Shown here piece after piece: positions 1 through 23,987 of a DNA stretch of 39,438 nucleotides. Position 1 is the stretch's first letter; each line of letters begins with the position of its first letter. The notes beneath the pieces are model-generated. The model saw nothing but the letters and a program-made list of their open reading frames with translations, was not told the origin of the DNA and searched no databases. Source of the stretch: Escherichia coli (lineage in GTDB: Bacteria; Pseudomonadota; Gammaproteobacteria; Enterobacterales; Enterobacteriaceae). The stretch is from assembly GCF_003334335.1 (NCBI RefSeq), contig NZ_QOWQ01000041.1. The stretch is one strand, 5' to 3'. Both the position numbers and the translations under genes were made by a program.

Positions 1-468
1 AGTACGGATTTGGGGACGAAAAACACATCGTCGTTTGATTACGGAACCAAATCCACGAATAACACCGGGGCGCATACGCACAGTCTGAGTGGCTCTACGG
101 GGTCTGCCGGTGATCATACTCATGGTAATGGTATTCGTTGGCCAGGAGGCGGCGGTTCTGCGTTAGCATTTTATGATGGCGGTGGGTTCACTTATGTCCA
201 GGATTCACAGTATCAAGTAAGCCCGGGGACTTCTTCCCGTAGATCGTATTATCAACGTATTCAGACACAGTCAGCAGGTGCTCATACCCACTCGCTGTCT
301 GGTACTGCAGCAAGTTCTGGCGCACATGCACATACTGTAGGTATTGGTGCGCATACGCACTCCGTTGCGATTGGTTCACATGGACACACCATCACCGTTA
401 ACGCTGCTGGTAACGCGGAAAACACCGTCAAAAACATCGCATTTAACTATATTGTGAGGCTTGCATAA
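1..468 (+). CDS. stf: Phage side tail fibre protein, C-terminal portion (5' end cut by window edge)
   Basis: Reading frame is open back to nt 1 (no stop before the ATG at 10). Repeated GAHTHSLSG / HxH motifs and the C-terminal ...[24 protein letters not shown] match the lambda Stf-type fibre tip. Directly followed by tfa. Confidence 0.85.
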
Positions 469-1052
469 TGGCATTCAGAATGAGTGAACAACCACGGACC
501 ATAAAAATTTATAATCTGCTGGCCGGAACTAATGAATTTATTGGTGAAGGTGACGCATATATTCCGCCTCATACAGGTCTGCCAGCAAACAGTACCGATA
601 TTGCACCACCAGATATTCCTGCTGGCTTTGTGGCTGTTTTCAACAGTGATGAGGCATCGTGGCATCTCGTTGAAGACCATCGGGGTAAAACGGTTTATGA
701 CGTAGCGTCAGGGGACGAGTTATTTATTTCTGAACTCGGTCCGTTACCGGAAAATGTTACCTGGTTATCGCCGGAAGGGGAGTTTCAGAAGTGGAACGGC
801 ACAGCCTGGGTGAAGGATACGGAAGCAGAAAAAATGTTCCGGATCCGGGAGGCGGAAGAAACAAAAAACAACCTGATGCAGGTAGCCAGTGAGCATATTG
901 CGCCGCTTCAGGATGCTGCAGATCTGGAAATTGCAACGGAGGAAGAAACCTCATTGCTGGAAGCCTGGAAAAAGTATCGGGTGTTGCTGAACCGTGTTGA
1001 TACATCAACTGCACCTGATATTGAGTGGCCTACGAACCCTGTCAGGGAGTAA
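468..1052 (+). CDS. tfa: Tail fibre assembly protein (lambda Tfa-like chaperone)
   Basis: 194-aa ORF; [54 protein letters not shown]... is near-identical to lambda Tfa as I recall it. ATG overlaps the stf stop (TAATG), suggesting translational coupling. Confidence 0.9.
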
Positions 1053-1101
1053 TCATTGGGATTATGCCGCAGCACGTCTTAAGCAAGAACGTGCTGCGGT
1101 T
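888..1101 (+). repeat. Direct repeat copy A (tfa 3' end plus downstream hairpin)
   Basis: About 214 bp, roughly 85-90% identical by eye to 1937-2150, same orientation. Confidence 0.8.
1067..1099. terminator. Hairpin between convergent tfa and methyltransferase genes
   Basis: Perfect 11-bp stem ccgcagcacgt / acgtgctgcgg with an 11-nt loop. A T-run follows on the + strand after about 10 nt (tattttttcc), so intrinsic-terminator function is plausible but not classic. Confidence 0.5.
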
Positions 1102-1106
1102 GGATG

Positions 1107-1775
1107 CTATTTTTTCCCTGAAGCGGAAAACATTACTACAGTACCTTGAACCTTGGTTTTAACATTCTCGAAATGCTCTGAGAGTATATGTGTTAAGCCT
1201 TCTTCGGAATCTTTTGTGTTTGAAAAGATGCCTTTCTGATTGTAAATGCGCATCAGTTTTTGACCGAAGCTATTGTGCACAACTCCATCGCCAAGAATTG
1301 TGGCTCCGTATAGAGTTCCATCGTCAGTTAAGGCCTGCGCCGCATTGCGTATTACACAGCTTTTTGTAGATATATTTCCAGGCAGGCAGTGAAGAAGGTA
1401 AAACATGGAAATGGAATCAAATTGACCATGTAACGCCGCGGGATAAGGTTCAAAAACATCATGGCTAATTTTATGTTTAATTTTTGATTCCCCAGCCCTT
1501 GTAGATGCCGCGTTCAGGCTAGCTTCGTTCAAATCCATTAAAGATATCAGACTACTCTCAGGTACGTGAGTAAGGTAAAACCCAGTTCCAACACCAATAT
1601 CCAGATGGTTGTTACCTACATGTTCCAGATAGTGTGGAAGAAGGTGTTCCTTTGTAGGACATCCCCATGCAAGCCGATTTGATACTCCCAAAACCCACCA
1701 GTCATAAAGCTTTAGGGTAAGTGGTGTGTAAATTTTAGCCCCATCATCTGTGTTTTTTTTCATTGATTTCACCAT
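1107..1775 (-). CDS. Class I SAM-dependent methyltransferase-like protein (prophage cargo, substrate unknown)
   Basis: 222-aa ORF with a glycine-rich motif I (LDIGVGTGFY) followed by acidic/hydrophobic motifs (SISMFYLLHCLPG, LTDDGTLYGATILG) typical of the Rossmann-fold MTase superfamily. No DPPY/NPPY or PCQ DNA-MTase motif. Looks AT-richer than the core genes. Start may be the first ATG or the MKKNT ATG. Confidence 0.65.
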   Translation of the reverse strand: MVKSMKKNTDDGAKIYTPLTLKLYDWWVLGVSNRLAWGCPTKEHLLPHYLEHVGNNHLDIGVGTGFYLTHVPESSLISLMDLNEASLNAASTRAGESKIKHKISHDVFEPYPAALHGQFDSISMFYLLHCLPGNISTKSCVIRNAAQALTDDGTLYGATILGDGVVHNSFGQKLMRIYNQKGIFSNTKDSEEGLTHILSEHFENVKTKVQGTVVMFSASGKK

Positions 1776-1936
1776 GTTATAGTTTTATTTGTGAATTAAA
1801 TCAATTATGGCGATGAATTACAAGGGGTTAAATGCTGCCGCAGCATAGCGATATTGAAATAGCCTGGTATGCTTCGATACAGCAGGAGACGAATGGCTGG
1901 AAGACCGTCACCACACAGTTCTACATCCAGGAATTC

Positions 1937-2100
1937 AGTGAGTATATTGCGCCACTGCAGGATGCTGTAGATCTGGAAATCGCAACGGAGGAAGAAAGAT
2001 CGTTGCTGGAGGCATGGAATAAATATCGGGTATTGTTGAATCGTGTTGATACATCAACTGCACCGATATTGAGTGGCCTGCAAATCCTGTCAGGGAGTAA
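1937..2100 (+). pseudogene. Tail fibre assembly gene 3' remnant with frameshift
   Basis: Encodes ...[43 protein letters not shown], homologous to the Tfa C-terminus. A 1-nt deletion (cacctgat to caccgat) shifts the frame before the conserved DIEWP end. No N-terminal tfa sequence upstream. Confidence 0.8.
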
Positions 2101-2150
2101 TCATTGGGATTATGCCGCAGACACGTCGTATGCAGGAACGTGCTGCGGTT
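1937..2150 (+). repeat. Direct repeat copy B (degraded tfa 3' end plus hairpin)
   Basis: Matches 888-1101; hairpin stem retained with mismatches. Confidence 0.8.
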
Positions 2151-2214
2151 AGTTTGTAAGCTTTCGATAGTGGTTGTTATTTTTGCCCTTATTTGTTCCG
2201 GAGGCCATGGTTCA

Positions 2215-2385
2215 ATGGTCCGTCTGCCCCCTGTGGTGATGTCAGCAAAATCAGCCACTGCGCGAACCACAATAGCCCGGGAAGATGCTGAAGATCACCA
2301 GGTAAAGCTGTCAGCGCAGAAACTGGAAGAACTGCTCGCATCAATGGTTAAGGATGAGGTTGATCGCAATGATGGGATTTATTGA
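2215..2385 (+). CDS. Hypothetical small protein (57 aa) in prophage terminal region
   Basis: ATG at 2215 preceded by GGAGG about 10 nt upstream; a T-run lies about 90 nt downstream (2478-2486). No recognisable motif; coding status uncertain. Confidence 0.3.
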   Translation: MVRLPPVVMSAKSATARTTIAREDAEDHQVKLSAQKLEELLASMVKDEVDRNDGIY

Positions 2386-2698
2386 CGTCAGCGAGAGCAG
2401 AAGGAAGAACTGAATAACCTGAATGATTTACGCTCAATCAGAGCGATGATGATTGGCAGTAATTAGCGGTCAATTTCGGTTTTTTTGGCTGTGCGCTCCC
2501 CGCCCAGCATTGCGCGTCAATTAGCCCCCAAAAAAACGAAAAAGTTACAATCAAGTAAAAAATTCCTTCTGCAAAACTAAAAAAGATTTCAATAAAATCA
2601 GACAGTTAAAAACATAAAAAAAGGTACAAAAAAAACATCTCAAAGTCTTGTTTTTTGCTTCAAATACAATTGGTTATTGTGTTTTTTGAAACCTACCA

Positions 2699-2815
2699 GT
2701 GTGGTACATGGATATCGATACCACCGCCAATTATAAGCTGGGCGGTGCACAGCAACACGATAGCGTACGCCTCGATCCGTGGGTGTTTATGTTCTCAGCA
2801 GGATATCGTTTTTAA
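2699..2815 (+). pseudogene. ompW: ompW 3' remnant (last ~38 codons), 5' part displaced by prophage
   Basis: Frame gives VWYMDIDTTANYKLGGAQQHDSVRLDPWVFMFSAGYRF-stop, matching the OmpW C-terminus as I recall it. Upstream sequence in this frame hits a stop and does not resemble ompW. Sits about 60 bp from the convergent yciE end, as in K-12. Confidence 0.85.
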
Positions 2816-2829
2816 TTCCGCACAAAAAC

Positions 2830-2850
2830 GACCCCGTAATATACGGGGTC
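2830..2850. terminator. Intrinsic terminator of the yciGFE operon (shared with ompW remnant)
   Basis: Stem gaccccgt / acggggtc, 5-nt loop; on the - strand it is followed by GTTTTTGTG. Confidence 0.7.
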
Positions 2851-2874
2851 AATAAGGACATGGTATAAAGGGTA

Positions 2875-3381
2875 TTATTTCTTCGCTTCTACGCCATCAG
2901 TTTCAGAGCGAATTAAAAATTTCTCAGTTGTTTGCGGAATATTCTGAATCAGCCAGTCGGCCATTTGCTTTTCCTCATTTAAAATCGCTTCGATGGTTGG
3001 AATTGAAGCTGTATCACCGGCATTTTTTGCTGCTGCTAATAGTGAGGTGTAACAGGCGATTTCAAATTGCTCGAAGACATATCCGCTAATAGAGCCTTTG
3101 ACTATTTCATCAGAAGGGAATATACCACCGATTGACTGCCCAAGCGCAGCCATTTTACTCATGGAATCTTTAATGACTGAACGTGAAATGTCATTACGAT
3201 CAAGAATAGTTTCCAGTTGAACAATCTGGTTTTTGGTTTCACTAAGATGTTGTTCAATACGAGCGCGTAGTTCAGGATAATTATCTATACGGCTGGCCAT
3301 GGATTCAAGCATAGATTCGGCTTGCTTTTCCATTGCGTGGGCGTCACGTAACCAGTCATGATAATGTTCAATACGATTCAT
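2875..3381 (-). CDS. yciE: Ferritin-like DUF892 stress protein YciE
   Basis: 168 aa, MNRIEHYHDWLRDAHAMEKQAE... recognised as E. coli YciE. Confidence 0.93.
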   Translation of the reverse strand: MNRIEHYHDWLRDAHAMEKQAESMLESMASRIDNYPELRARIEQHLSETKNQIVQLETILDRNDISRSVIKDSMSKMAALGQSIGGIFPSDEIVKGSISGYVFEQFEIACYTSLLAAAKNAGDTASIPTIEAILNEEKQMADWLIQNIPQTTEKFLIRSETDGVEAKK

Positions 3382-11123: not shown

Positions 11124-11153
11124 CAAAAAAAAGCCCGCTCATTAGGCGGGCTG
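11124..11153 (-). terminator. trp attenuator (leader terminator 3:4 hairpin plus U-tract)
   Basis: - strand reads agcccgcctaatgagcgggct followed by TTTTTTTT, between trpL and trpE. Confidence 0.9.
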
Positions 11154-11194
11154 GGTATCTGATTGCTTTACGCATGGTGAATACACTGCCCGTT

Positions 11195-11239
11195 TCAGGA
11201 AGTGCGCCACCAACCTTTCAGTACGAAAATTGCTTTCAT
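11195..11239 (-). CDS. trpL: trp operon leader peptide
   Basis: - strand ATG AAA GCA ATT TTC GTA CTG AAA GGT TGG TGG CGC ACT TCC TGA = [14 protein letters not shown] with tandem Trp codons. Confidence 0.92.
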
Positions 11240-23615: not shown

Positions 23616-23987
23616 TTATCATCATTCTTATTACCCATTTTTAATGAATTAAAGGGCTTTTAATACACCGCAGCAATAACAGCTTGAGTTATCTCAACAC
23701 AAAATAATAACCGTTAAGGGTGTAGCCTATGATCAACACAAATATGAAATATTGGTCCTGGATGGGCGCGTTTTCTCTGTCGATGCTCTTCTGGGCCGAA
23801 CTCCTCTGGATCATTACTCACTGATCCTTGACCCCGCTGCGGCGGGGTTGTCATTTGCTTTGCCACAAGGTTTCTCCTCTTTTATCAATTTGGGTTGTTA
23901 TCAAATCGTTACGCGATGTTTGTGTTATCTTTAATATTCACCCTGAAGAGAATCAGGGCTTCGCAACCCTGTCATTAAGGAGGAGCT

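Follow-up and report, generated by a model that had tools for sequence, protein, structure and literature searches.

The ompW fragment that lies beside yciE in this Escherichia coli contig is very probably the chromosomal (B′) half of the attR site of a PPompW prophage, with ompW itself rebuilt at attL, at the opposite end of the prophage. That the lysogen is OmpW-proficient is part of the same reading and is held with the same confidence. On this reading, an E. coli genome in which yciE adjoins a pseudogene of ompW has the right end of PPompW there and should not be scored as having lost OmpW, a point that chiefly concerns annotation; in the genomes that we examined, the predicted functional ompW sits about 29–50 kb away, at the integrase end. 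PPompW is a lambda-like prophage located in E. coli ompW and flanked by 121-bp attL/R sites. It is present in 44% of 767 complete E. coli genomes, and its excision and circularization have been detected by PCR (Nakamura et al., PLoS Pathog 2021, PMC8112680). An attR remnant of this kind is therefore ordinary and already described; a literature search for explicit statements on the reconstitution of ompW by prophages returned nothing relevant.

The window (the whole 39,438-nt stretch of DNA that was analysed) begins 2.7 kb inside the prophage, and attL lies outside it. Statements about attL consequently refer to proxy genomes. We read the attL open reading frame directly in DA33133, and for the other genomes the evidence consists of BLAST matches together with the annotation of ompW and integrase. 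The sequence records of PPompW are LC567818–LC567841.

The ompW remnant and its surroundings

The translation of the open reading frame at 2699–2815 is VWYMDIDTTANYKLGGAQQHDSVRLDPWVFMFSAGYRF followed by a stop, which corresponds to OmpW residues 175–212 in PDB entries 2MHL/2F1T and in K-12 b1256. Homology to ompW starts 2 nt before the frame, at position 2697 (the second base of codon 174), and from there to 2815 the window matches the final 119 nt of the K-12 gene at every base. The ompW–yciE spacer, the hairpin and yciE then follow as they do in K-12. The exact match and the native downstream arrangement together exclude chance and confirm the original prediction that a 3′ remnant of ompW remains in place beside yciE. 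The hairpin (CGACCCCGTAATATACGGGGTCA), which also scores as a terminator-like site on the minus strand, is probably a bidirectional terminator that stays with the remnant.

To the right of yciE, the window continues with yciF, yciG, trpABCDE and trpL onward, ordinary chromosome in the K-12 order. Two structured RNAs found in this part, the trp operon leader (11125–11218, minus strand) and STnc180 RNA (23656–23858, plus strand, which overlaps the site where B-1109 has ymiC annotated), are expected chromosomal elements.

Judged from its sequence, the attR remnant of ompW is a dead pseudogene. A PF03922 OmpW barrel comprises a signal peptide and eight strands in one polypeptide; the remnant has residues 175–212 only and lacks the start, the signal peptide and strands 1–6. 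The 25-mers sampled from the first 520 nt of ompW have no match in the window, and the prophage would separate the remnant from this segment and from the ompW promoter. In identical genomes, the RefSeq annotation of this stretch is likewise a pseudogene of the OmpW family that lacks its N-terminus. The frame does have a mechanical GTG start at 2699, from which, or by phage read-through, a functional 38-residue peptide might be expressed. We find this scarcely credible, because the GTG is codon Val175 of ompW and no true start, no Shine–Dalgarno sequence precedes it (GAAACCTACCA, read directly), and no promoter-like site was found on the plus strand in a scan of 2300–3000. In addition, with one and a half β-strands and no signal peptide, the product could not fold into a barrel, and the recombination geometry described below fully accounts for the sequence.

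Table 1. Features at the prophage–chromosome boundary and at the opposite prophage end
Feature	Position in window	Strand	Basis
Right end of PPompW-type lambdoid prophage (P-arm side)	1–2696	+	99.4% identity to CP025907.1 over 1–2698
Side tail fibre C-terminus	10–468	+	Annotation of identical genomes
Tail fibre assembly gene	468–1052	+	PHROG tail fibre assembly, E = 2e-100
SAM methyltransferase cargo gene, class I	1107–1775	-	phrog_2132, E = 1e-156, a PHROG of unknown function
Tail fibre assembly remnant	1832–2152		Annotation of identical genomes
DUF4376 pseudogene	about 2197–2466		Annotation of identical genomes
A/T-rich P arm	about 2470–2696		
Candidate arm-type integrase site CTTCTGCAAAACT, P arm	2566–2578	+	Repeat family D1
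Core CAGTGTGGTACATGGATATCGATACCAC, 28 bp	2697–2724	+	Identical in attB, attP, attL and attR
attR copy of the 121-bp att	2697–2817	+	attP/ompW homology, 78.5% identical (95/121)
Native ompW 3′ remnant, codons 175–212 and stop	2699–2815	+	100% K-12 identity; RefSeq pseudogene
Native hairpin between ompW and convergent yciE	2829–2851	.	K-12-identical; terminator-like site on minus strand
yciE, first intact chromosomal gene right of the prophage	2875–3381	-	ORF list; K-12 and B-1109 annotation
Expected attL ompW, 639 nt in frame; expected 3′ end ...GCAGGATATCGTTTTTAA, then CTCTGCAAAAC repeats			

Prophage DNA in the window

All of the window DNA to the left of the ompW remnant is phage (Table 1). 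Together with the comparison of att sites given in the next section, its similarity to CP025907.1 bears out the prediction that the remnant was left at the end of a prophage. Relative to the described PPompW prophages, the integration locus, the 121-bp att, and int/xis with the attL arm (99.5–99.6% over 1304 nt) are the same, as is the Qin/lambda-like gene content, as seen in a proxy genome, whereas the attR-side cargo carried by the window differs from that of the STEC/EPEC PPompWs. No effector locus was seen in the 2.7 kb of prophage that the window covers, and the 21-bp attB-in-PP_1 of the STEC/EPEC PPompWs is absent from the window even when three mismatches are allowed.

The methyltransferase gene is bracketed by two copies of a tail fibre assembly 3′ end, at 880–1060 and 1940–2110, and in the related phages PhiR68_2 and Kati the equivalent gap is occupied by a DNA invertase. 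The arrangement suggests the remains of an invertible tail-fibre segment in which a cargo gene now resides. Identical genomes have a DinI-family fragment annotated near the methyltransferase. We also note a full-length match to the Rfam family IS009 (811–1009, plus strand; 223.8 bits against a gathering score of 117), which falls wholly within the tail fibre assembly open reading frame.

Attachment sites and strand exchange

For a four-way comparison of the att sites, we aligned K-12 ompW as attB, CP025907.1 as attP, DA33133 as attL and the window as attR. To the left of a 28-bp block, attR follows attP and attL follows attB; to the right, the relationship is exchanged and attR follows attB and attL follows attP at all 26 of the 26 variant positions. 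As the block is identical in all four sites, strand exchange must have taken place inside 2697–2724. In CP025907.1 the attR left arm, the core and the attL right arm are joined mid-record, which is the arrangement that defines an attP. On the evidence of this alignment, the comparison is that of a textbook reciprocal exchange between attB and attP.

The prophage lies in ompW between yciC and yciE, and the 121-bp att is duplicated. The length of this att is also that of the repeat_region in LC567822.1, annotated as 'duplication due to insertion of PPompW'. The window contains the attR copy only; attL is seen in DA33133 and in other genomes whose attR is identical.

Temperate phages that target the 3′ ends of genes (tRNA genes and some protein genes) carry a replacement end in attP. 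The system described here resembles these phages in that attL regenerates the gene, attR retains a dead remnant and the identical core is short. It differs in that the duplicated part is only 78.5% identical, and the regenerated protein therefore differs from the native one at seven residues.

The attL copy of ompW in proxy genomes

The attR region of DA33133 matches that of the window at 100% over 901 nt. Its prophage is about 50 kb long and has the order int/xis, Qin/lambda-like early genes, lysis, head and tail genes and tail fibres, followed by the remnant. The int-proximal end, opposite the remnant, has a complete ompW in the RefSeq annotation (WP_000737224.1). This attL gene is 639 nt long and encodes 212 amino acids in frame, ending in ...DPWVFMFSAGYRF before the stop, with the C-terminal strand ...VFMFSAGYRF intact. 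The protein can be aligned over its full length with 2MHL/2F1T (E = 1e-124) and differs only in the segment 185–194. The original prediction had allowed that the other end of the prophage might rebuild the open reading frame, and had named an attL ompW of full length, in frame and with its C-terminal β-strand signature preserved, as the observation that would contradict a loss of OmpW; this is what the proxy genomes contain.

The arrangement recurs beyond DA33133. Ten genomes combine an attR that is 99.9–100% like that of the window with an attL junction 100% like that of DA33133, and have annotated ompW and integrase genes. Among the matches listed, at least 9 of the 12 genomes with a 100%-identical attR also have a 100% match to this attL. 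B-1109, the closest complete genome over 25 kb (roughly eight positions different from the window), matches the DA33133 attL at 100% and has both ompW and integrase annotated. The genome from which the window derives presumably has the same attL as the proxies, and we would be surprised to find it without an intact attL ompW, although deletions inside the prophage are known from this lineage.

Two observations could be taken to favour insertional inactivation, in which ompW is split and the lysogen, lacking OmpW, is resistant to colicin S4 or to OmpW-dependent phages. The native ompW in the window is limited to the 3′ 119 nt, without a single sampled 25-mer from the 5′ part, and rlmC of E. albertii is genuinely split by this phage arm, at a secondary site, so that the phage is able to disrupt genes elsewhere. 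Inactivation, however, as in 'active lysogeny' switches, implies an interrupted open reading frame whose lost part is not replaced and whose function returns only on excision, and here attL regenerates the full-length frame with its C-terminal signature. A complete, in-frame ompW is found at attL in every proxy genome examined, attP itself encodes a replacement 3′ end and a terminator, and the final strand of the replacement is changed only synonymously. We therefore consider inactivation very unlikely, and the OmpW deficiency or receptor loss suggested in the original prediction is unsupported. Reconstitution of ompW at attL is the reading that we retain below.

A YkgJ-family pseudogene fragment lies between yciC and ompW in DA33133 (L002 5046–5135, minus strand). 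Another prophage-borne attB, attB-in-PP_2, has been traced to the ykgJ/ecpE region (Nakamura et al., PMC8112680).

Phage-supplied residues in OmpW

The attL ompW is identical to K-12 over its 5′ 520 nt (0 differences) and differs from it at 26 positions in the last 119 nt, with 7 nonsynonymous and 10 synonymous codons. The seven substitutions, N185K, L188S, G190V, A191T, Q192T, Q193V and H194K, all fall at residues 185–194. Across residues 195–212, which comprise the final strand and the C-terminal signature, five codons are changed without a single amino-acid change, indicating that the phage copy has evolved as coding ompW sequence. Such a pattern is expected of a genuine ompW coding end under purifying selection, and it speaks for translation of the phage-borne piece within OmpW, either now or over a long past period. 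Of the earlier suggestion that lysogens make a chimeric OmpW, the chimerism itself stands, in that 38 codons are supplied by the phage and seven residues differ; it is mild, and the phage-supplied codons bring neither a frame change nor a truncation. The rebuilt OmpW would be a mildly chimeric protein that is presumably expressed and functional.

Barrels of the OmpW family are built from eight strands, connected by long loops outside the cell and by short turns in the periplasm; divergence is greatest in the loops (PMC2993939). From this published topology, we infer that residues 185–194 lie in the strand 7–8 hairpin, extracellular loop 4. The placement rests on the topology rather than on an AlphaFold single-sequence model of the chimeric protein, which reached a pLDDT of only 28.

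Could the phage-encoded loop serve the lysogen or the phage? In a lysogenic conversion of this kind, the loop residues would alter recognition by colicin S4, phages or antibodies. All seven of the seven amino-acid changes map to the β7–β8 hairpin, extracellular by the family topology (PMC2993939), the charge of the loop shifts by about +2, and at least three phage-type loop variants are present in databases. OmpW is the receptor for colicin S4 (PMC2649078) and a phage receptor in Serratia (PMC10132071); no OmpW loops that contact the colicin are named in the colicin S4 structure paper. The same loop, however, also varies among the native ompW genes of Salmonella, Klebsiella and Leclercia, so that relaxed constraint suffices to explain the seven substitutions, and loops are in general the most divergent part of the family (PMC2993939), without any need for an adaptive role. 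On balance we regard such a conversion as unlikely. The narrower proposition that the phage-encoded loop affects how colicin S4 or phages recognize OmpW seems to us slightly more doubtful again.

If colicin S4 or OmpW-dependent phages made contact with the loop, receptor specificity would be switched with the OmpW protein retained. It is conceivable, if rather improbable, that a phage-encoded last loop is present in about a third of E. coli, that its variants differ by phage and that integration acts as a reversible switch of receptor specificity. An OmpW with a phage-encoded surface loop in lysogens could bear on work with OmpW as a vaccine or biosensor target and on studies of OmpW as a colicin or phage receptor.

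No native donor of the loop was recognized. A degenerate DNA scan for the phage-type loop (AKYKSGVTTVKD) across 100,044 species-representative genomes matched no native ompW, bearing in mind that an exact pattern misses near-variants; its sole match is a prophage junction in E. albertii. A protein search with the C-terminal 53 residues returned only fragments of <100 aa and no native full-length donor. The phage-type C-terminal variants in databases include ...AKYKSGVTTVKDS..., ...ASYK(S/F)NGTPVKDA... and ...AKYKSDGRKLAKGSYSDN... (proteins P0003, P0004, P0040, P0053 and P0024, P0026, P0028, P0035). The phage-type end also occurs behind N-termini unrelated to OmpW, suggesting that there are further junctions or secondary sites.

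Integrase, arm motifs and a model for integration

In the proxy genomes, the integrase has a lambda-type Arm DNA-binding domain (PF09003, E = 2.6e-21) and a tyrosine recombinase catalytic domain (PF00589), and an excisionase gene lies beside it, adjoining attL; both genes have PHROG integrase and excisionase matches. The PPompW intE/xisE records match these genes at 99.5–99.6% DNA identity.

One copy of the motif (C)TCTGCAAAAC lies in the P arm (window 2568–2577) and three tandem copies lie in the P′ arm at attL, where they sit directly after the stop codon of the phage-borne ompW, outside the window. Four copies of TCTGCAAAAC in the 4.4-kb attP region compare with 0.48 expected, and 0 of 200 shuffles reached four. 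The repeats may serve as arm-type sites for Int. The P′ arm at attL also has a hairpin followed by a T-run after the phage ompW end (inverted repeat I4), and this phage-supplied element provides the rebuilt ompW with a terminator.

The likeness to lambda extends to the PF09003 and PF00589 integrase, the adjacent xis and the order attL–int–xis ... tail fibres–attR, and the one P-arm motif and three tandem P′-arm motifs resemble its arm-type sites. Unlike lambda, whose site lies between gal and bio, the core here is inside a coding gene; the 28-bp identity block and the wider 121-bp homology are further differences.

These features can be combined in a simple model. Immediately next to int, the attP site has its own version of the final 119 nt of ompW, diverged from the host's, together with a terminator. 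A lambda-type integrase, aided by the arm repeats, would exchange strands within the 28-bp stretch, in ompW codons 174–183. Integration would then join the chromosomal ompW promoter and the first 520 nt of the gene to the phage 3′ end at attL, giving a complete 212-aa OmpW, and would leave the native 3′ end promoterless at attR. The lysogen is predicted to be OmpW-proficient, and precise excision would bring back the native allele.

Distribution and related prophages

Among 5426 complete E. coli genomes, 598 contain the attR junction between this phage arm and the ompW remnant, and 1715 contain the attL junction of ompW with int.

In B-1109 an internal deletion removes all head and tail genes, reducing the distance from att to att to about 28.6 kb vs about 50 kb in DA33133, and this prophage copy is probably defective. 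Just upstream of the position at which the window starts, a truncated small terminase is fused to the C-terminal part of a tail fibre in B-1109 (L006 11238–12868). The phage record CP025907.1 is likewise short, at 31.5 kb.

In E. albertii NBRC 107761, the same integrase and the same phage-type 3′ end of ompW adjoin rlmC in place of ompW (L007 5670–6493, minus strand). The junction lies at about codon 234 of 376, creating a chimeric rlmC′–′ompW open reading frame, and rlmC is truly split. The secondary site in rlmC is weakly similar to the 28-bp core. This rlmC also contains a stop that stems from an 8-bp tandem insertion.
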